From the NCBI GenBank assembly GCA_963741955.1, contig CAVUKB010000007.1, forward strand, positions 704,001 to 768,000: a stretch of 64,000 nucleotides of DNA. The letters are read 5' to 3'. The position numbers were made by a program, and so were the translations under genes. The number at the start of each line of letters is the position of its first letter. Position 1 is the stretch's first letter. The DNA comes from an uncultured Acidobacteriota bacterium. GTDB lineage: Bacteria; Acidobacteriota; Thermoanaerobaculia; Gp7-AA8. Below are positions 25,126-52,277 of this stretch, in pieces. The notes under the pieces were generated by a model, which ran no database searches, had not been told where the DNA came from, and saw only the letters and a list, made by a program, of their open reading frames with translations.

Positions 25126-25451
25126 GAGCTCCTCCTGGATGGCCCCGATGTTCCGGGGCAGCCGCCGTCTCCCGGCGGTCCGACAGCGGGTCACGATAGC
25201 ACTTTCGCGCGGATCCGCGTACCCGTTCGGTCAAAGCCCTCCGATAGGATTTCCGGCGACCGGGGGCGCTGATGCCCGGGACATCAAATCGCGAGCCAAC
25301 CGCTCGCGGCCTATTCGACGGGTCTCGCACGAATTCCGGCCTGCGGGAAAAGCGGCGTGTCGTCCCGGTTGCGAGCTGAACCTCAGTCACCAAGTGGTTA
25401 CGAATCGCATCGTGCCGGGTACCGATTTCCGCCGCCCCAGGCACTCCTGAA

Positions 25452-25937
25452 GTGGAAGGGTCAAACATGCACGGACTTCGATCTGCGTGCGCGCGGGCAA
25501 ACTGGGCACACCACTCGTGTCCCGCCTCCACCTGCAGAAAGCACTCCGGCGAGTGTAACGTCGTTGGTGGAGTTATCACCGATCCAGGTTCGAATTTCGG
25601 CCTCTGCGTCAGCATTGATGCACCGGCGCACTATCTGCGTGTCGCTCACATGAATTCCGACGGTGGTGCATATCCTCAATGGAGCGGATATCGAACTGAC
25701 GTGACGCAGAGATCGGGTACGTCCTTCGCTGTTCCATTCGTCGCCGGGATGGTTGCCAGACTCCTGGAGAAGTACCCGGGGCTGCCCGCAGCCCCGGAAC
25801 TCAACCCGAGCAACCCGAGCTTGAATGTGTGGACCTACTTGAAGAACCGGGCTCTTGCGAGGAACCCACAACCAGCCGACATCGACCCATCATCCAACAT
25901 AAACCACCTGCTCGTATACATGTCGGATCTCGACTAG
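25452..25937 (+). pseudogene. Truncated S8 (subtilisin-like) protease C-terminal remnant
   Basis: GSNFGLCVSIDAPA...SGTSFAVPFVAGMVARLL (catalytic Ser motif)...VWTYLKN...HLLVY; no signal peptide, catalytic Asp or His motif. Confidence 0.75.
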
Positions 25938-25945
25938 GAGGAGCT

Positions 25946-26764
25946 GTGAAACGACTCGTCATGCTGATACTTGCGGCGACGCTCGGATCGTCCGTCGTGT
26001 ACGCCCAGGAACTGAGCTATCAGAAGATACTATTACCGCTGAGGCCGCGCGGTGTGGTGAACGGAGCTTATGGGTCGCAGTGGCGGACCTCACTGATCGT
26101 ATTGAATCGGTCCGGGGAGCCCGTGATGATCGTTCCGCCTCTGAGTGGATGTCAGATCCTTTGTCCCCCTGAGGGAGAGGGTCCACCGACGCTGCCCGGA
26201 GTCAGCTTCAACCCCTATATATTCACGCTTCCGGATACGCTCTCGGGGGAAGGCTTTTTCGTCTATGTCGATCGTGCTCACGCGGCCGACGTGGCGTTTC
26301 AGCTCAACACAAGGGACCTGTCCCGAGAGGCCGAAACCCGAGGAACTGAAGTTCCCGTCGTGCGTGAAGGGGAGTTCTTCACCGGTACGAGGTCCCTTCT
26401 CGGCATTCCGGTCGATGCGCGGTTCCGGGTATCTCTGCGGATTTACGACGGCGATAATTCCGACGCCGATGCAAGCGCCACCGTTCGATTCTTTGAAGAA
26501 TACGGAGCTCAGGTCGATTCCGGGGAGCCGGATCGGTTGCTACTCGAGGAGACGATCCCGTTTCAATATCCGACGTCCGCGGAGAGCCGACGCGCGCAGC
26601 CTGGGTACATCTACCTCCCGGACTTGGCAATGATACCGGAATTGGCAGGGATATCCACGATCCGGATCGACGTCGAGTCGGCGCAGTCGGGACGTCATCT
26701 GTGGACATTCGCGAGTGTGACGAATAATCAGACGCAACACGTCACACTGATCACGCCTCAGTAG
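25946..26764 (+). CDS. Secreted protease-partner protein ('TNNxTQHVT' family), copy C
   Basis: GGAGG RBS and GTG start; signal peptide; ILLPLRPRGVVNGAYGSQWRT, RDLSRE...GTEVPVVRE, ends WTFASVTNNQTQHVTLITPQ; homologous to 48075..48896. Confidence 0.85.
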   Translation: MKRLVMLILAATLGSSVVYAQELSYQKILLPLRPRGVVNGAYGSQWRTSLIVLNRSGEPVMIVPPLSGCQILCPPEGEGPPTLPGVSFNPYIFTLPDTLSGEGFFVYVDRAHAADVAFQLNTRDLSREAETRGTEVPVVREGEFFTGTRSLLGIPVDARFRVSLRIYDGDNSDADASATVRFFEEYGAQVDSGEPDRLLLEETIPFQYPTSAESRRAQPGYIYLPDLAMIPELAGISTIRIDVESAQSGRHLWTFASVTNNQTQHVTLITPQ

Positions 26765-44901: not shown

Positions 44902-46334
44902 ACTCGGACCTCTCCCACCTCCTCCGACAGCAGTTCGCGGTCACTCGCGAGCACGGGGTCGATCTTCTCTTCCAGGAACCGCTCGACCTGCCGCGGGGCG
45001 AGGCCGATGAACTCTTCGGGGCCGGCGATGCGGTCGATCTCTTCACGGCTGATGCCGAAGATCGGGTCGGCGGCGATCCGGTCGAACAGGTCATTGCGAC
45101 TCGCGCCGCTCTTGAGTGCGTCCGCCGCCGCGACCGAATGGACGCGCACGCGCTCGTGCAGCACCTGGCGGTCGCCTCCGCGGCGCACTCCTTCCATCAT
45201 CAGATTCTCCGTCGCCATGAATGGAAGCTCGCGCGCGACGTTCGCCGCGATGACTTCCTCGTGCACCACGATCCCGCTGACGATGTTGTCGTAGATCATC
45301 AGGATCGCGTCGGCGCCGAGGAATGCTTCGGTGATCGCGATGCGGCGGTTGGAGGAGTCGTCGAGAGTCCGCTCGAGCCACTGTGTCGCGGCAGTGTGCG
45401 CCGGGTTCTGGGAGTTGATGATGAGGTGGCGCGAGAGGCCGTCGATCCGTTCCGCGCGCATCGGATTGCGTTTGTACGCCATCGCCGACGAGCCGATCTG
45501 GTGCTCCTCGAACGGTTCCTCGATCTCGTGCATGTGCTGGAGGAGGCGCATGTCGTACGCGAACTTCGAGGCCGACTGCGCGATTCCTGCGAGCGCATTG
45601 ACCACCTGCGAGTCGACCTTGCGGGAGTACGTCTGTCCGGAGACGGGGTAGATGCGGTCGAAGCCGATCCGTTTCGCGACGAGACGGTCGAGCTCTTCGA
45701 CCTTCGCGCCGTCGCCGTCGAAAAGTTTGAGGAACGACGCCTGCGTGCCGGTCGCCCCTTTGACGCCGAGGAGCGCGAGACGCTCCTGCTGGAAGACGAG
45801 CTCCTCGTAGTCGAGGAGGAGGTCCTGCAGCCAGAGGGAGGCGCGCTTGCCGACCGTGGTCAGCTGAGCGGACTGGAAATGAGTGAAGGCGAGGGTCGGG
45901 GTGTTGCGCCAGCGCCAGGCGTAGTCGCGGAGCTTCGCCATCAGGTTCACCAGGCGGCGCCGGACGATCTTCATCGCCTCGTGCATCTGGAGGATCTCGC
46001 TATTGTCGGTGACGAAGGCGGAGGTGGCGCCGAGATGGATGATCCCCTTCGCGGTCGGGGCCTGGAGTCCGTAGGCGTGGACGTGAGCCATCACGTCGTG
46101 GCGCACTTCGCGCTCGCGCCGCTCGGCGTCTTCGTAGTTGATGTCGTCGGCGTGCGCCTTCAGCTCCGCGATCTGCGCGTCGGTGATCGGCAGCCCGAGC
46201 TCTTTCTCGGCCTCGGCGAGGGCGATCCAGAGCCGTCTCCACGTGCGGAACTTGAAGTCCGGCGAGAAGATGCGGGACATCTCGCGCGAAGCGTAGCGCT
46301 CGGTGAGAGGATTGCTGGCGGTGTCGCGTGGCAC
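44898..46334 (-). CDS. purB: Adenylosuccinate lyase
   Basis: PLTERYAS, RHDVMAH, IHLGATS, THFQSAQLTTVGKR, GSSAMAYKRNP. Confidence 0.97.
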   Translation of the reverse strand: MPRDTASNPLTERYASREMSRIFSPDFKFRTWRRLWIALAEAEKELGLPITDAQIAELKAHADDINYEDAERREREVRHDVMAHVHAYGLQAPTAKGIIHLGATSAFVTDNSEILQMHEAMKIVRRRLVNLMAKLRDYAWRWRNTPTLAFTHFQSAQLTTVGKRASLWLQDLLLDYEELVFQQERLALLGVKGATGTQASFLKLFDGDGAKVEELDRLVAKRIGFDRIYPVSGQTYSRKVDSQVVNALAGIAQSASKFAYDMRLLQHMHEIEEPFEEHQIGSSAMAYKRNPMRAERIDGLSRHLIINSQNPAHTAATQWLERTLDDSSNRRIAITEAFLGADAILMIYDNIVSGIVVHEEVIAANVARELPFMATENLMMEGVRRGGDRQVLHERVRVHSVAAADALKSGASRNDLFDRIAADPIFGISREEIDRIAGPEEFIGLAPRQVERFLEEKIDPVLASDRELLSEEVGEVRV

Positions 46335-46402
46335 GGAGGGATTATACCGTGTGGCGCGAGCGTCTCGCTCGGGCAGGACCCTCCGTCGGACCCGTCGGAC
46401 GG

Positions 46403-46777
46403 CTACCGATTGTCGCGGGACTCACTCGGGGCCGGCTTTTCTGGTTTGGCGTTCTCCGGCAGGACGTACACCGTCTCTCCCGGTTTCGACATGTCGAGGT
46501 GCTCGCGGGCGATCCGCTCGACGGCGAAGGTCGATTTCCGGAGACTCTCGATCTCCTTCTTCAGGCGGTCGTTTTCTCCTTTCAGGCGGTCGATCTCGAC
46601 CTGGAGGTCGTGGACCCGCTTGCGCGACTGCTGGAGCTCGGAGATCCCGCGCTGGCTGAACGCGAACGAGACGAGGAAGACGATGGTCAGCACCGCGCCG
46701 AGGAGGACGACGACCTTCAGGGTGGTGCGGGTCGTCTTCCGGCTGTCGTGCAGCGACACGGTGGGAGGGATGGGCAC
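46403..46777 (-). CDS. ftsB: Septum formation initiator (FtsB/DivIC)
   Basis: One TM helix, coiled coil, VERIAREHLDMSKPGE; GTG at 46777 lies just downstream of TTGACA-17-GACACT. Confidence 0.85.
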   Translation of the reverse strand: MPIPPTVSLHDSRKTTRTTLKVVVLLGAVLTIVFLVSFAFSQRGISELQQSRKRVHDLQVEIDRLKGENDRLKKEIESLRKSTFAVERIAREHLDMSKPGETVYVLPENAKPEKPAPSESRDNR

Positions 46778-46976
46778 GAGGGTAGTGTCGAATTCGCGGC
46801 CCCGGGTGTCAATGGGGGCGCCGGCTTCCAGCCGGAAAGTGGGTCGCACGTCTCGTGCGAAGCTCGCCGGCGTGTCGCCGGCGAGCGATGTGTGCGGACG
46901 TCATCACCCGCGGCGCTGGCGTTATCCGCGTTTGCGCCCCCTCCGCCTGAGTCCCGACCCTGCCGGCCTGCGACGA

Positions 46977-47134
46977 GCAGGGCGGCGCGGGACGCCGCCC
47001 TGCTCGAGAAGAAATGGGAATGACCCTACTTCGGCGTCACCAGCGTCACGTGTTGCGTCTCGTTGTTCGTGATACTGACGAATGCCCAGATTCTTCGTCC
47101 GGGATCGAGCGGCTTCACCTCGATGGCGATGTGT
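46977..47134. repeat. 158-bp direct repeat, copy 1 (copy 2 at 48026-48183)
   Basis: Identical by eye to 48026-48183 (offset 1049 bp); covers the hairpin GCAGGGCGGCG-cggga-CGCCGCCCTGC and the 3' end of the partner gene. Confidence 0.9.
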
Positions 47135-47848
47135 CGAAATTCAGAACCGCCGGGAAGGAATCCGAAATCGAGGTCACCTGAGCGAACCGGGGTGGGCAGG
47201 CAGATCGACTTGTCTCGGGAAGGTATTCGAGGTTCATTGGGAACTCCAGAAACGGATCGGCGTCGCCAGTGTCTCCCTGTTGTTCCGGGAGGCGGAATAG
47301 TCGGACGAGCACCCGCGATGTGCCTGGGTTCTCGAGATCGTAAACACGCAACGCCGCGCGGAAGGGCTCTCGTGTGGGAACGCCAAGAAGGTACACCGGA
47401 GTGCTCTCCGCGATCTCGCTCCGTCGGACAACGGGAATTTCCGTGCCGCAGGTGAGTGCCTGACGGGAACGGTCGGCGATTCTCAATTGCAGGTGCATCG
47501 CCGCCGCTCGTGCTTGCCGACCGACACTAGGATGCCCGGGTTCGGGCCGACGCTCCAGTCCGAATCGGATGGCCGCCACTGGTACACGCTCGCGGGAGGG
47601 AACTGCGGTGGCATCTGACATCCTTCGAGAACGCAGAATGGCTCGCCGGTGAACAATGGGACTTCTCGACCACTGGTGTTCCAGGCCCAGAGCACCGTAG
47701 TCCATAGGGAGCCGTACGCACCCTCCACCGGGTATCGCAACCCAATGGGTAGCAGAAGCCTGTCGTAGTCGTCAGGACTCTGGTACTGAGCGTGACCCAA
47801 CGCACACGTGAGAAACATCAGAACAGAGATCAGGACCTTAGCTTTCAT
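47026..47848 (-). pseudogene. Secreted protease-partner protein, copy B, frameshifted
   Basis: MKAKVLISVLMFLTCALGHAQ...YDRLLLPIGLRYPVEGAYGSLW; frame breaks near 47505 and 47137; 3' end identical to copy A (WAFVSITNNETQHVTLVTPK). Confidence 0.85.
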
Positions 47849-47868
47849 TTTAAGCTCCAGCAGCTCGG

Positions 47869-48024
47869 TCAAGGACAAGATCCAGCCAGATAAAGGCGGC
47901 GATTCGTGGTATACGGTGGAGGTCGAAAGGGACTCTGGTTCGTCGTCGCATTATTCCGGAGGTACTCCCAAGCTTGATCCGGGACAACGCGGCTGTAATT
48001 GTTTGAGTCACCATAGTGGAAGTG
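47869..48024 (-). pseudogene. Orphan 51-aa C-terminus of a variant S8 protease
   Basis: Manual translation HFHYGDSNNYSRVVPDQAWEYLRNNATTNQSPFRPPPYTTNRRLYLAGSCP*; 39 of 51 residues identical to the end of 48919..50355; no start codon. Confidence 0.9.
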
Positions 48025-48074
48025 GGCAGGGCGGCGCGGGACGCCGCCCTGCTCGAGAAGAAATGGGAATGACC

Positions 48075-48896
48075 CTACTTCGGCGTCACCAGCGTCACGT
48101 GTTGCGTCTCGTTGTTCGTGATACTGACGAATGCCCAGATTCTTCGTCCGGGATCGAGCGGCTTCACCTCGATGGCGATGTGTTCGTAATTCAGAACCGC
48201 CGGGAAGGAATCCGAAATCGATGTCACCTGAGCGAACCCGGGGTGAACGGGGAACGGTGAGGCCTCTCCCGGGACATAGTGGAGATCGAGCGGAAATTCA
48301 AGGAACGGCGTGGCATCACCGGTGTCACCCTGTTCCTCGGGAACTCGAAAGATTCGAACGAGGACTCGCGATGACCCCGGATCCTCCAGGTCGTAGACTC
48401 GCAACGTGGCCCGGAAAGGATCACGAGTTGGAATTCCAAGGAGGTGAACCGGAGCGCTTTCAGGAATCCCGCTTCTCCGGACCACAGGAAGCTCCGTTCC
48501 GAAGTTGAGTTCCTGTCTTGAGAGATCGGTGATTCTCAGCTGAAGCTGGACCGAGTCCTCCTTCTCCTTCCAGACCGAGACGAAGACTCCCGGATTCGAA
48601 GCATCTCCGTAATACGTCAACCCCCACTGGTACAGCTCACCGGCCGGCAGAACCGGCGGCCCGGAGCACCCTTCAACTCCGCAGGTCCCGTTTCCTTGAA
48701 CGAACGGGACGTTCTCTTGGCCGGAGTTCCACACCCAGAGCGGCGTGGCCCAAACGGAGCCGTAGGCCCCGCTCACGGGGTAGCGCAACATAACCGGAAG
48801 CAAGAGCCGGTCATAATTGTTCGGATCCTCGCTCTGAGCGAGCCCCAATGCGCTCGCGAGTAGAATCAGAAGTGAGACGATTATCCGTCGTTTCAT
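48075..48896 (-). CDS. Secreted protease-partner protein ('TNNxTQHVT' family), copy A
   Basis: ATG 22 bp after the protease stop; signal peptide; YDRLLLPVMLRYPVSGAYGSVW, CGVEGC, DLSRQ...GTELPVVR, ends WAFVSITNNETQHVTLVTPK. Confidence 0.88.
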   Translation of the reverse strand: MKRRIIVSLLILLASALGLAQSEDPNNYDRLLLPVMLRYPVSGAYGSVWATPLWVWNSGQENVPFVQGNGTCGVEGCSGPPVLPAGELYQWGLTYYGDASNPGVFVSVWKEKEDSVQLQLRITDLSRQELNFGTELPVVRRSGIPESAPVHLLGIPTRDPFRATLRVYDLEDPGSSRVLVRIFRVPEEQGDTGDATPFLEFPLDLHYVPGEASPFPVHPGFAQVTSISDSFPAVLNYEHIAIEVKPLDPGRRIWAFVSITNNETQHVTLVTPK

Positions 48897-48918
48897 AGCA
48901 ATCTCCAAAGAGTTCCGT

Positions 48919-50355
48919 TCAGGGACAGGCCCCGGGAAGGTACAACCGCCGATTGGTCGTGTACGGGGGCGGTGAAAAGGGACTCTGGTTGGTTGTTGCA
49001 TTGTTTCGAATGTAGTCCCAAGTCTGGTCAGGGACCGTCCGCGCAAAATTGTTCGGATCCAGGTAATGGAACAAGCCGAGATACGCGGCTACCGCACTCG
49101 AAACGATGGGTGCGGAAAACGACGTACCGCTGGTGTAGCTCTGCCGTTCGACCGATGGGTCGCACCCTGCCTTCGGGCGCGATCCGTCAGCATTCGTCCA
49201 GACGCATTTCGGATCGAATCCCGCTGAGCGGATCGCCTCAGCTGGTGCGAAGAGATCGACGTACGGCCCCCAGTTCGAACCATGTTCTGGGCCGACGCCA
49301 GGGGTCACTTCCCACCGGAAGTCGGATGTTCCCGGAATGCCCAGACCACCGACGGTGATGACATTTCCCCCGCCGCTGCGGGCCAGTCGTGACGGTGAGT
49401 AGTTTTGTGCATAGTCATTCTGATTGTTCGCAGACACGATCACTGTAATGCCATTGTTCACGAGGGCATCGATTTTCTCTTCAACGAATGTGGGATCGGG
49501 ATCACCGTTGGACCAGAAGTAGAAGCTCATATTGGCAAGACTCGGCCGGTACGAAGAATCAGGATTGCATGCGGGCGGATTCAGCCCTCCACCACAGCTT
49601 GTAAGAATCCAGTCGAGTCCGGTCGCGACCTTGTCCGACTCTACCACCCCGTAACAATCAGCCACTCTGACGGAACGGATCGCCGCATCGGGAGCGACGC
49701 CAAAGGTATTACCAGCAATGAGTGAAGCGACGGCCGTGCCATGGCCTGCAGTGTACACGGTGTCCCCATAGAAGGCGCTCATGTGCGCACATGGCCAAAC
49801 GGCCTCGAGATTGCTACAGGCGCCCATGCAGTTGTCGAGTATATCGACTCCCCCGTCAACCTTTCCGGCGAGTTCGGAGTGAATTCCAAGGACTCCAGTA
49901 TCGACGACGTAAGCAAGGGCACCCGCGCCACGCCCGCAATAGAGGAATAGATTGTCAAGCGGCAGTGTCTGCTGATCGACCCGGTCGAGATGCCAGATCT
50001 TGCCGTCCGGACCCGACGCACCCACATTTCGGACACTCGAAGTCTCGCCGTCGACTCCTTCGGCGATTTCTTCGACGTATCGAACCGCTGCGTCTGAGCT
50101 TATTCGCTCAGCAGTCTTTTCGTCGCAAGTCAGCACGAAACCGGTCGGCTCGATTCGAAACACGTGCTCCACGATCCCATGGTACTTCTTCGCAAGGTCG
50201 CTGGCGAGGATTTCCGGCGACGACGTTCCGGCAGGAAACGCCACGATATAGCGGCCCGGCACGTTTTTCGGGTTCTTACGGATCTTCCCATCCCCGGCGA
50301 AAAGCGGCACCGCCAGAGCGACGCAGATGAACAACAAGAGCAGGCGCTTGGTCAT
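48919..50355 (-). CDS. Secreted S8A serine protease with I9 propeptide
   Basis: Signal peptide; VPGRYIVAF propeptide; triad motifs AYVVDTG, GHGTAVAS, SGTSFSAP; oxyanion VSANN; Cys-rich insertions. Confidence 0.93.
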   Translation of the reverse strand: MTKRLLLLFICVALAVPLFAGDGKIRKNPKNVPGRYIVAFPAGTSSPEILASDLAKKYHGIVEHVFRIEPTGFVLTCDEKTAERISSDAAVRYVEEIAEGVDGETSSVRNVGASGPDGKIWHLDRVDQQTLPLDNLFLYCGRGAGALAYVVDTGVLGIHSELAGKVDGGVDILDNCMGACSNLEAVWPCAHMSAFYGDTVYTAGHGTAVASLIAGNTFGVAPDAAIRSVRVADCYGVVESDKVATGLDWILTSCGGGLNPPACNPDSSYRPSLANMSFYFWSNGDPDPTFVEEKIDALVNNGITVIVSANNQNDYAQNYSPSRLARSGGGNVITVGGLGIPGTSDFRWEVTPGVGPEHGSNWGPYVDLFAPAEAIRSAGFDPKCVWTNADGSRPKAGCDPSVERQSYTSGTSFSAPIVSSAVAAYLGLFHYLDPNNFARTVPDQTWDYIRNNATTNQSPFSPPPYTTNRRLYLPGACP

Positions 50356-50791
50356 AGGACCTCCTTGCGCGGCAACCTAAGCCTTCGAGACAGCTCGAGC
50401 AACGGGCATTTTGAAACGCCCCGAGGGTATGAACCGCCGCAACGGTAAATCTGCATCTGAATTTGCGCCTTGAGCGTCGTGGAGTCTGCTGAAAGTGAGA
50501 TCTGCAGAAACGGTCGAGTGAGTTGACGGATGCGTAACCGAAGTGTGACGCGACGGTTCCGACGCCCAGTGACGTGCAGGCGAGCAGTTGCATGAGGAAA
50601 TCCGCTCGTGCGCTTGCAATCATCTGCCTGAGCTCCGGCAAGCCGCACTTCGCCGCTCGGCGCGCGAGACTGACGGGGTGAGTTCCGAGTTGCTGAGCGA
50701 GCTCCGACACCCGAGGTGGAGTGGCCGCTTCGAGGCAGCCAAGAACATATCGATCGATTTCACGACGGAGAGTCGAGCAGGGAATGCGCAT
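50276..50791 (-). CDS. Stand-alone AraC-type HTH regulator (3' end possibly extended or degenerate)
   Basis: RVSELAQQLGTHPVSLAR...LLACTSLGVGTVASHFGYASVNSLDRFCRSHFQQTP; AGGAGG RBS; ORF tail overlaps the protease start. Confidence 0.7.
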   Translation of the reverse strand: MRIPCSTLRREIDRYVLGCLEAATPPRVSELAQQLGTHPVSLARRAAKCGLPELRQMIASARADFLMQLLACTSLGVGTVASHFGYASVNSLDRFCRSHFQQTPRRSRRKFRCRFTVAAVHTLGAFQNARCSSCLEGLGCRARRSYDQAPALVVHLRRSGGAAFRRGWEDP

Positions 50792-50882
50792 GAGTCCTCC
50801 TGTTCAGGAGTTCCTCCAGACGGCCGGATCGGTACCCGCGATTCAAGCTCGTCACTCGAGGCTGTGACGGTCGTGCTTTGGA

Positions 50883-52277
50883 TCACGTCCGCGGTTTGCT
50901 CTTGGGGTCCGGCTCCACTTCGCGCAGCGACTCCGCGATGTCATGGGGGACGTTTCGATGGACGTCTTCGATGCGGCGAAGGGTGATTCCCCCCTCGAAC
51001 TGCCACTCGTGCTTCGGGCGGTAGACGCCGATGTCGTGGATGCGCGCGCCGACGACGAACTGGAGCACGCCGCGGCGGTAGTCGAACGCGCGGCCGCTCT
51101 TCGTGTGGATCGCCGCGTCGATGCGGTACGAGCCGGCGACGAGATCGAGCGACGGGATGACGAAGCGCACTTGGCCGTCGCCGTCGATGCGCTCGGGGGT
51201 CAGACCTTCCAGTTCGGTGTTCGTCCCGTAGACGCAGGTTCCGTCGGCGTGGTAGATCCCGACGCCGAACACGAAGTCCTCCTGCGGCTCGCGGACTCGA
51301 ACGTCCATTTCGAGGGTGACCGGCGAGCCGGGACCGAGCGCGACGAGCTGCTGGCCGTCCGGACCGGTGAGTGTGACGTTCTGCAGGAGCACTTCACCCG
51401 AGCCCCAGCGCTCTTCTTCCGCTTCCTCTCCCGTCTTCGCCTTCTCTGCGGGCTGCGGCTCCGGCGCTTCCTTCTCCTCGGGGGTGACGCCGGTGCGCAT
51501 GCTGATGCCGCTCTTTCCCCTCTTGTGGCCCTCCGTGACCTGCTGGAGGTACTGATCGACCACCCGCACCGGATCGCCCAGTCCGGCCACTTCGCCGCGC
51601 TCGAGCCACACCGCGCGGTCGCAGATCGTCCGCACGAGATCGAGCTGGTGTGTCACGAACAGCATCGTCACGCCGCGGTACTTCATCTCCTGGATCTTCG
51701 CGATGCACTGCTGCGAGAACTCCTCGTCTCCGACCGAGAGGACCTCGTCGATCAGGAGAATGTCCGGATCGACGTGCACTGCCACGGCGAAGCCGAGCCG
51801 CACGTACATTCCCGACGAATACGTTTTCACCGGCTGCTCGAGGAAGTCGCCGATCCCGGAGAACTCCACGATCCGGTCGTAGCGTTTCGCGATCTCCTTC
51901 TTCGAGAGCCCGAGCATCATCGCGTTGATGAAGATGTTCTCCCGACCGCTGATCTCCGGATGGAATCCCGCACCGAGCTCGATCAGAGCCGAGATCCGCC
52001 CATCGACGACGACCTCGCCGCGAGTCGGCTTGAGGATCCCCGAGACGAGCTTGAGGAGCGTCGATTTTCCCGACCCGTTGCGCCCAACGACGCCGAATGC
52101 CTCGCCGCGATTGACCGCGAAGCTCACGTTCCGCAACGCGACGACCGACTTCTCCGGCGGCGGGATCAGCTCGCGCTTGAGGAGCGCGCTCTTGAGCGTC
52201 TGGAGCTGCGACTTCACGCCGTAGAGGCGGTAGCTCTTCGACAGATCTCGGGCGACGATCGGGTATTCGCTGCTCAA
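50883..52277 (-). CDS. wzt: Polysaccharide ABC exporter ATP-binding subunit with Wzt C-terminal domain
   Basis: GRNGSGKSTLL, YSSGMYVRLGF, IDEVLSVGD, C-terminal carbohydrate-binding domain; TTG start overlaps the wzm stop. Confidence 0.92.
   Translation of the reverse strand: MSSEYPIVARDLSKSYRLYGVKSQLQTLKSALLKRELIPPPEKSVVALRNVSFAVNRGEAFGVVGRNGSGKSTLLKLVSGILKPTRGEVVVDGRISALIELGAGFHPEISGRENIFINAMMLGLSKKEIAKRYDRIVEFSGIGDFLEQPVKTYSSGMYVRLGFAVAVHVDPDILLIDEVLSVGDEEFSQQCIAKIQEMKYRGVTMLFVTHQLDLVRTICDRAVWLERGEVAGLGDPVRVVDQYLQQVTEGHKRGKSGISMRTGVTPEEKEAPEPQPAEKAKTGEEAEEERWGSGEVLLQNVTLTGPDGQQLVALGPGSPVTLEMDVRVREPQEDFVFGVGIYHADGTCVYGTNTELEGLTPERIDGDGQVRFVIPSLDLVAGSYRIDAAIHTKSGRAFDYRRGVLQFVVGARIHDIGVYRPKHEWQFEGGITLRRIEDVHRNVPHDIAESLREVEPDPKSKPRT

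Follow-up and report, generated by a model that had tools for sequence, protein, structure and literature searches.

A stretch of 64,000 nt from the genome of an uncultured Acidobacteriota bacterium of the class Thermoanaerobaculia (assembly GCA_963741955.1, contig CAVUKB010000007.1, positions 704,001 to 768,000; hereafter the window) carries on its minus strand, between wzt and ftsB, a block of about 4 kb. In this block a gene for a short AraC-type regulator is followed by a gene for a secreted subtilase of family S8, a gene for an exported protein that we call partner A, a palindromic repeat (the hairpin), a start-less 3' end of an S8 gene, a second partner gene (B) and another copy of the palindrome (Table 1). 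An earlier note on this DNA had described the same order and had likened the start-less protease end and partner B to the orphan toxin/immunity cassettes of polymorphic toxin loci; all of the elements were found where it had placed them, and the start-less end is, as it had said, identical to the end of the intact protease at 39 of 51 residues. The S8 protease and its partner form a real and conserved module, and the block is probably one copy of this lineage-specific, multi-copy module, with the orphan end being the stump of a second, old and diverged copy that lay directly downstream.

The two units of S8 end, partner gene and repeat are arranged head to tail and recur at an interval of about 1050 nt (spacing 1048–1050 nt). 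Their similarity is uneven, with 100% identity over the last 158 nt, 95% over the next 59 nt and 59–70% over the remainder. The junction between hairpin and stump falls 3 nt inside the outer stem of the copy A palindrome. Partner B is frameshifted, as had been noted, by two shifts of 1 nt (near 47503 and 47134) and not by one.

Table 1. Features of the S8–partner block and of a second S8 remnant–partner unit, in coordinates of the window (S8A protease domains and regulators were assigned with Pfam).
Feature	Coordinates	Strand	Remarks
Short AraC-type regulator, 171 aa	50791..50276	-	HTH_18 PF12833, E 3.2e-9, 37.4 bits (cut-off 33.6)
Intact secreted S8A protease, proteinase K/aqualysin type, 478 aa	50355..48919	-	Peptidase_S8 PF00082, E 3.2e-18, 66.5 bits (cut-off 21.8)
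Partner A, exported, 273 aa, two beta-sandwich halves, unnamed family	48896..48075	-	Signal peptide; AlphaFold2 model
Hairpin copy behind partner A, 27-nt palindromic repeat	48055..48026	.	Longer 14-bp stem minus its outer 3 nt
Start-less 3' remnant of second S8 gene, 51 codons + stop (codons 48024..47872)	48024..47869	-	Corresponds to residues 428–478 of the intact S8
Partner B, pseudogene	47848..47026	-	Two 1-nt frameshifts, otherwise no in-frame stop
Second palindrome copy	47006..46974	.	Full 14-bp stem
158-nt homogenisation tract	46977..47134	.	Last 35 partner codons, stop, spacer and repeat; identical to 48026–48183
3' remnant of another S8 gene, stop-to-stop open frame, directly 5' of partner C	25380..25937	+	Pfam S8 E 7.8e-6, profile positions 190–261 of 288
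Partner C, intact paralogue	25946..26764	+	37% identical to A

The intact protease has a signal peptide, a putative I9-like propeptide and the catalytic residues D152, H205 and S412; among 55 relatives H205 and S412 are invariant and D152 nearly so. Its nearest solved structures are proteinase-K-type enzymes. The propeptide family (PF05922) scores 16.1 bits in this copy, below the cut-off of 21.2; the paralogues pass, and residues 31–102 form the expected beta-alpha-beta unit in an AlphaFold2 (AF2) model with a predicted local distance difference test score (pLDDT) of 86. With the proteinase K/aqualysin type of S8A subtilases that carry an I9 propeptide it shares the triad, the signal peptide, a putative propeptide and some 55–65 residues past the catalytic serine, whereas it is at most 38% identical to any protein found, has several extra loops and is regularly linked to a partner gene.

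The orphan end begins 16 residues past the catalytic Ser412 and so includes none of D152, H205 and S412. In the AF2 model the corresponding residues are the packed end of the catalytic domain (block pLDDT 75–93) with a helix at 442–452. As a piece of this packed end without a catalytic residue, the orphan would have no activity and is not a domain of its own. Its nucleotide identity to the intact end is 0.667. The C-terminal ends of the four intact S8 paralogues of this genome differ from one another.

The same hairpin had been reported behind both partner genes, and it is indeed present twice; however, it is not specific to these genes. Its 27-nt GC-rich core occurs in 162 copies in the genome at no more than two mismatches, arranged in 23 clusters of 3–12 copies and 18 singletons, and because of this genome-wide occurrence the hairpin is a REP-like repeat and not a terminator specific to these genes. 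No T-run follows it. Clustered copies are spaced 167–270 nt apart, mostly inside non-coding composite tandem units that contain other short sub-repeats (for example at G000:C7:1043470-1045823 (L119) and C5:513975-515884 (L120), with 21 further clusters; the copies in the window are at 46977 and 48026). The segment 46835–46890 together with the second palindrome copy forms a single unit of the kind that builds the repeat arrays at other sites of the genome. Repetitive extragenic palindromic (REP) sequences and bacterial interspersed mosaic elements (BIME) are short GC-rich palindromes with many intergenic copies, often clustered; the hairpin resembles them in all of these respects and differs in lying mostly within composite tandem units of 167–270 nt, in 23 arrays. 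A search of the arrays against Rfam gave no credible family, the sole match being far below the gathering score, and a scan for promoters and terminators gave no useful signal for a partner promoter inside the S8 end.

Copies of the module in this genome and among relatives

A search of the window's own genome with partner A gave 19 matches, corresponding to 14 partner-type genes and three weak pieces, and the neighbours of these genes were classed by Pfam scans of 141 adjoining open reading frames (ORFs) and by tblastn with S8 ends. Of the 14 partner genes, eleven are preceded by an S8 gene or by what remains of one. The upstream S8 gene is intact in four cases (A, C4a, C4b P1 and C6b), broken in three (truncated at C5a, split in two at C5b and, at C6a, a fragment behind a DDE transposase 1.6 kb upstream) and reduced to a 3' stump in four (B; C4:337457-337513; C7:36108-36251; window 25380-25937); no S8 trace was found upstream of the remaining three (C7_216k, C1 and C6_268k, the last being the C-terminal domain of a longer ORF). 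The C4 stump lies between two intact tandem partners, and over 19 residues it shares 84% identity with the end of the nearest S8 upstream. The C7 stump, of 43–47 codons, is 79% identical to the C6b S8 end and has a partner gene directly downstream.

Partner identity mirrors the similarity of the S8 ends: partners A and B are 66% identical, C4b P1 and P2 87%, and C6b and C7_35k 62%, as against 26–56% for the other pairs. Thus, by pairwise identities in this genome, S8 ends and partners co-vary, and this argues that whole modules were duplicated. The low GC content remarked on before was also seen (0.55–0.60 across 47000–50750 against 0.63–0.69 in the flanks), and it is a trait of the family, because the partner and S8 paralogues throughout the genome are equally GC-poor (0.57–0.64 against 0.62–0.66 in their flanks).

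Further copies show other forms of damage or rearrangement. A fifteenth, weak partner-like ORF on C8 lies behind an S8 gene split in two. At the C7 stump, the S8 end is joined in frame to an ORF of the beta-lactamase family, of which the first ~150 residues remain, with the signal peptide and the SxxK motif (L024:5816-6583 = G000:C7:36090-36857, minus strand). At L022 (G000:C6:337992-357991) two S8–partner modules lie ~10 kb apart, each behind a nearly identical 143-aa HTH_18 gene; one of the S8 genes is interrupted beside a DDE transposase, and an IstB-type gene stands between the two modules.

The partner family is large. A scan of 1.84 billion cluster representatives returned 2262 proteins at E<=1e-3 and 1585 at E<=1e-10, and the source names, where given, indicate Thermoanaerobaculia. 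Across 150 other genomes of the class, matches at E<=1e-5 were present in 34 of the 35 genomes of the window's own family, with at most 17 scored matches in a genome; beyond this family they were few and weak. In relatives, partner genes also stand in tandem runs of two to four.

Linkage to S8 is looser in the relatives than in this genome. When the best partner locus of each of 29 relatives was inspected (31 partner genes), S8-like sequence was present within 1.4 kb upstream of eight genes and none was found within that distance for the other 23. The S8 gene is full length at L030, L040 and L041, frameshifted at L035 and degraded at L044; L033 keeps the last ~66 S8 residues, from the catalytic-serine motif, L034 keeps S8 from about residue 230, and at L038 an N-terminal S8 piece lies between partner genes. 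Orphan S8 ends followed by partners, which the reading of the earlier note would expect in relatives, are thus found at four loci here and as stumps before partners in two relatives (L033 and L034). A blastx comparison of the 400 nt upstream of 38 relatives' partner genes with 153 S8 C-terminal pieces gave matches for 13 of the 38, all of them already known, and no further stumps, a search that would miss ends whose parent S8 is outside the 153-piece set. From the protease side, taking the best S8 locus of each of 29 relatives and grouping by coverage of the S8 profile, a partner lies directly 3' of 8 of 15 short-type S8 genes but of none of the 11 long-type genes, which have an extra C-terminal domain, nor of the three partial matches. 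Each of the relatives' samples includes one locus of the unpublished genome G131 (L052, L104 and L086); dropping these changes the counts by one and leaves the conclusions as they are. In relatives, a single in-frame stop (TGA, TAG or TAA) interrupts many of the S8 matches of this type, so that breakage of S8 genes in this family seems to be common outside this genome as well.

The partner as an exported protein of probable binding type

Partner A has no match in Pfam or NCBIfam. Its signal peptide ends in LGLAQS, without a lipobox cysteine, and its AF2 model (pLDDT 92, predicted template modelling score 0.88) consists of two beta-sandwich halves. Foldseek with this model gave no match in the PDB at E<=0.001, and a profile search of PDB sequences none at E<=5. 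An exhaustive structural aligner placed the C-terminal half (142–273) close to TM1070 (1nc7; Z 10.7, root-mean-square deviation 2.8, 104 residues aligned) and to the Anabaena sensory rhodopsin transducer (2ii7; Z 7.6, deviation 3.5, 97 residues); lower matches included many carbohydrate-binding and protease-appended beta-sandwiches at Z 5–7, a range that is common for this aligner. The C-terminal half thus resembles the TM1070/transducer type in fold, although the partner has no sequence similarity to these proteins, its N-terminal half is unmatched and a common fold is no proof of a common function.

The partner domain spans ~245 residues and ends in a conserved stretch, WAFxSVTNNETQHVTxITPQ, at the extreme C-terminus of the protein. 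Of 72 instances of the domain in proteins of at least 300 aa, 70 end no more than 10 residues short of the C-terminus, and in larger surface-type proteins it is the C-terminal module behind TIG, DUF11 or CARDB repeats. Neighbours in a structure-based atlas suggest further fusions of the domain to enzymes, which we treat as leads only. No fusion of S8 and partner was seen among 119 S8 homologues or 259 partner homologues, a sample limited by its length windows. With PADLOC, neither the partner nor the AraC gene had a match, and the S8 protease had generic subtilase matches only. The partner would thus be an exported binding-type module.

Complex prediction with mature S8 (118–478) and partner A (23–273), run on alignments built in this analysis, gave a median score of 0.46 (runs 0.74, 0.26 and 0.46), and the best of three controls scored 0.00. 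The runs had at least 60% contact agreement and a partner pLDDT of at least 84. The mark used for binding was attained by 58 of 80 solved complexes and 2 of 110 mismatched pairs, although at scores of 0.60 or below only 7 of the 80 solved complexes attained it, together with both of the passing mismatches. The prediction, which had been suggested as a check, therefore lends weak support to binding of partner A by the protease. The likeliest role of the partner would be that of a non-covalent binding subunit of the protease, acting either as an anchoring or targeting module or as an inhibitor, although it may also be a substrate of the enzyme.

A described system resembles this arrangement in part. 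In Tannerella forsythia the KLIKK peptidases have co-transcribed specific inhibitors, the potempins, and these include the S8A peptidase mirolase with PotC; potempins are outer-membrane lipoproteins of 98–132 residues encoded upstream of the peptidase (PMC9890683). The likeness lies in a secreted peptidase with an adjacent gene for an exported protein and in several such pairs per genome. Potempins bind their peptidases specifically and inhibit them; the partner here has 273 aa, is encoded downstream, lacks the lipobox cysteine and belongs to a different fold class, so that the layout and the type of putative inhibitor differ. The literature searches returned no subtilisin report for Thermoanaerobaculia and, among the papers listed, no relevant subtilase gene cluster of Acidobacteria and no S8-based polymorphic toxin. 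The module brings to light a large unnamed family of exported proteins that is regularly linked to a particular type of secreted subtilase and, if the partner binds or inhibits its protease, it would represent a novel form of control over proteases at the surface of soil bacteria.

History of the second unit

Comparison of codons separates the older from the more recent history of the tandem. Over 270 codons partners A and B differ at a proportion of 0.55 of silent sites (pS) and 0.21 of replacement sites (pN), with 66% amino acid identity. In codons 1–218 (216 aligned) pS is 0.47–0.78 and pN 0.17–0.35, depending on the segment; there is no difference in the last 35 codons, and the 19 aligned codons that precede these have a nucleotide identity of 95%. 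The orphan S8 end differs from the intact one over 51 codons with pS 0.89, pN 0.16 and no indel, and the C7 stump from the C6b S8 end over 43 codons with pS 0.75 and pN 0.18. Since the silent sites are saturated and the replacement sites conserved, a state which non-coding DNA would not keep, partner B was a working gene for almost all of its divergence, until recently, and both stumps likewise belonged until recently to S8 genes that worked. The perfect 158-nt tract, which terminates exactly at the second frameshift, is best read as a recent gene conversion.

These values bear directly on one conceivable origin of the tandem, a duplication in place of a 1050-bp unit of S8 end, partner and repeat that was followed by slow divergence. 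The head-to-tail order and equal length of the units, and the commonness of tandem partners in the family, are as such a duplication would leave them. However, a start-less end would have drifted neutrally from the outset, yet it shows a pN of 0.16 at a pS of 0.89 with no indel, and partner B has only two frameshifts and no stop in spite of saturated silent sites. We consider this origin very unlikely.

We favour instead, as the probable history, the decay of a second complete copy of the module. The module consists of a proteinase-K-type secreted S8 followed by the exported two-beta-sandwich partner, preceded at three loci by a short AraC-type regulator, and the 4-kb block would have been inserted between wzt and ftsB. 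More recently, the second S8 gene would have been cut down to its last 51 codons, partner B would have acquired its two frameshifts, and the last 158 nt, including the REP-like palindrome, would have been made identical to copy A by gene conversion; we infer the order of these events, and also that the structure arose by deletion and not by insertion of a foreign unit. Other loci of this genome, and loci of relatives, show the same decay, in which S8 is lost or broken and the partner kept, so that the orphan layout would be a side effect of duplicating the module and losing its protease gene, and not a reserve of toxin ends for exchange. The proposed insertion fits the flanks, as the interruption of a wzt/ftsB context noted earlier is borne out by two of the 29 relatives' loci: wzt directly abuts ftsB in L069, in the orientation of the window and with a gap of ~150 nt, and in L078. 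The other 27 loci are uninformative on this adjacency, being too short or arranged differently.

Several observations weigh against the decay of a second module. There is no genome of the same genus for comparison, the closest purB being 79% identical, so that the ancestral locus is unseen, and insertion of a foreign unit of S8 end and partner A would give a structure identical to that left by deletion of the second S8 gene. The stumps of 51 and 43–47 codons start no more than one alignment column apart, just past the helix that follows the catalytic serine; this fits a preferred crossover site, but with six stumps of very different lengths it can also be chance. Most partner genes outlive their S8 gene, as orphan immunity genes also do, the tandem partners of L101 have no visible S8 stump between them, and the frameshifts of partner B rest on a single assembly.

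Some of the same observations would be expected had a cassette been displaced in the manner of the contact-dependent inhibition (CDI), Rhs and MafB systems, whose loci hold orphan modules of toxin end and immunity gene (PMC4436062). There, as here and at C4:337457-337513, a full gene and its partner are followed by a start-less 3' fragment and a diverged partner, with several units per genome. By this route a 3' part of S8, partner A and the repeat would have recombined into a resident S8'–partner B gene, giving the protease a new end and a cognate partner (an inhibitor, immunity protein or docking protein) and pushing the old end and B downstream. Besides the layout, which is that of the orphan-module scheme in PMC4436062, it would account for purifying selection on the orphan end until recently, as expected of a displaced resident end, for the co-variation of S8 ends and partners, for the near-coincident starts of two stumps and for partners that persist after loss of S8 and form tandem arrays; the predicted binding (0.46 against a best control of 0.00) adds weak support, with the calibration caveats given above. 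The pieces themselves do not fit well. The exchanged fragment would comprise the 51-residue tail of a catalytic domain, without a catalytic residue, and would not be a toxic domain in its own right. There is neither a trafficking region nor a demarcation motif, and no exchange-point motif is conserved at the S8 ends, whose nucleotide identity here is only 0.667; moreover, the stumps of this genome and its relatives vary tenfold in length (~22, 43–47, 51, ~66, at least 120 and ~250 codons), which argues against a fixed exchange point. The partner is large and exported, unlike typical small immunity proteins, has no S8 nearby at 23 of 31 relatives' genes and occurs as the C-terminal module of TIG, DUF11 and CARDB proteins. 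The polymorphic-toxin reading fails because there is no separate toxic end and no fixed exchange point and because the large partner is mostly unlinked to S8 in relatives. What survives of the idea of cassette exchange is that orphan units recur and that ends and partners co-vary, and displacement of a cassette is an unlikely origin of the tandem.

A related proposal, which we regard as unlikely too, is that S8 and partner are cognate pairs under fast diversifying turnover, the partner being a surface-displayed inhibitor or docking subunit, and that surviving and tandem partners act like orphan immunity genes that shield the envelope from the proteases of neighbours. If this were true, the module would be a protease-based counterpart of toxin/immunity arsenals in Thermoanaerobaculia. 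If the second unit is instead a decayed copy of the module, as we prefer, simple duplication and gene loss can leave start-less gene ends and neighbours that look like orphan cassettes of toxin and immunity genes, and codon-level signatures of selection offer a simple way to separate such decay from true cassettes.

An assembly artefact, in which two strains or paralogues were joined at the common 158-nt repeat, is the least probable explanation and in our view extremely unlikely. A perfect 158-nt repeat and a palindrome of 162 copies are error-prone spots for assemblers; however, a false join at the repeat would not make a junction between the repeat and S8 codon 428, partner B differs from A by ~30%, far beyond strain variation, similar stumps are present at three further loci and in other genomes, and the contig is 1.3 Mb long. 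Only one soil-metagenome run contained part of the stretch (a 0.05 share of words). Compared with 46300–51000, its contigs matched 46300–46909, 48189–49647 and 49625–50307 without difference, and none covered or bridged 47085–47869 (partner B), a gap that speaks neither for nor against the tandem; contigs piled up on the repeat because it has many copies in the genome. A 706-nt metagenome contig (run X1) joins an AraC-like stretch corresponding to 50298–50836 (7 differences in 539 nt), 67 other letters and a copy of the 46837–46909 element, and is probably from a related strain or a paralogous locus.

The regulator and neighbouring genes

The last 80 nt of the AraC-type gene overlap the start of the S8 gene. 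Its PF12833 match covers a C-terminal double helix-turn-helix (HTH), and there is no N-terminal sensor domain in a protein of only 171 aa. The last ~60 residues of the ORF (overlap 50276–50355) resemble non-coding read-through, so that the gene may be damaged or may truly end sooner. Comparable short genes of the HTH_18 type precede both S8 modules on C6, which gives the three-gene form at three loci.

The order rlpA–purB–ftsB is conserved in relatives. The ftsB-like gene of the window (46403–46849) is co-directional with purB, as in L069, but the two genes are on opposite strands in the other 19 loci of relatives that have an ftsB match (20 of 29 have one), which suggests a small inversion in one lineage. 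Elsewhere in the window, 25380–26764 makes up the second unit of an S8 3' remnant and an intact partner, and a phosphofructokinase gene adjoins it on the opposite strand.

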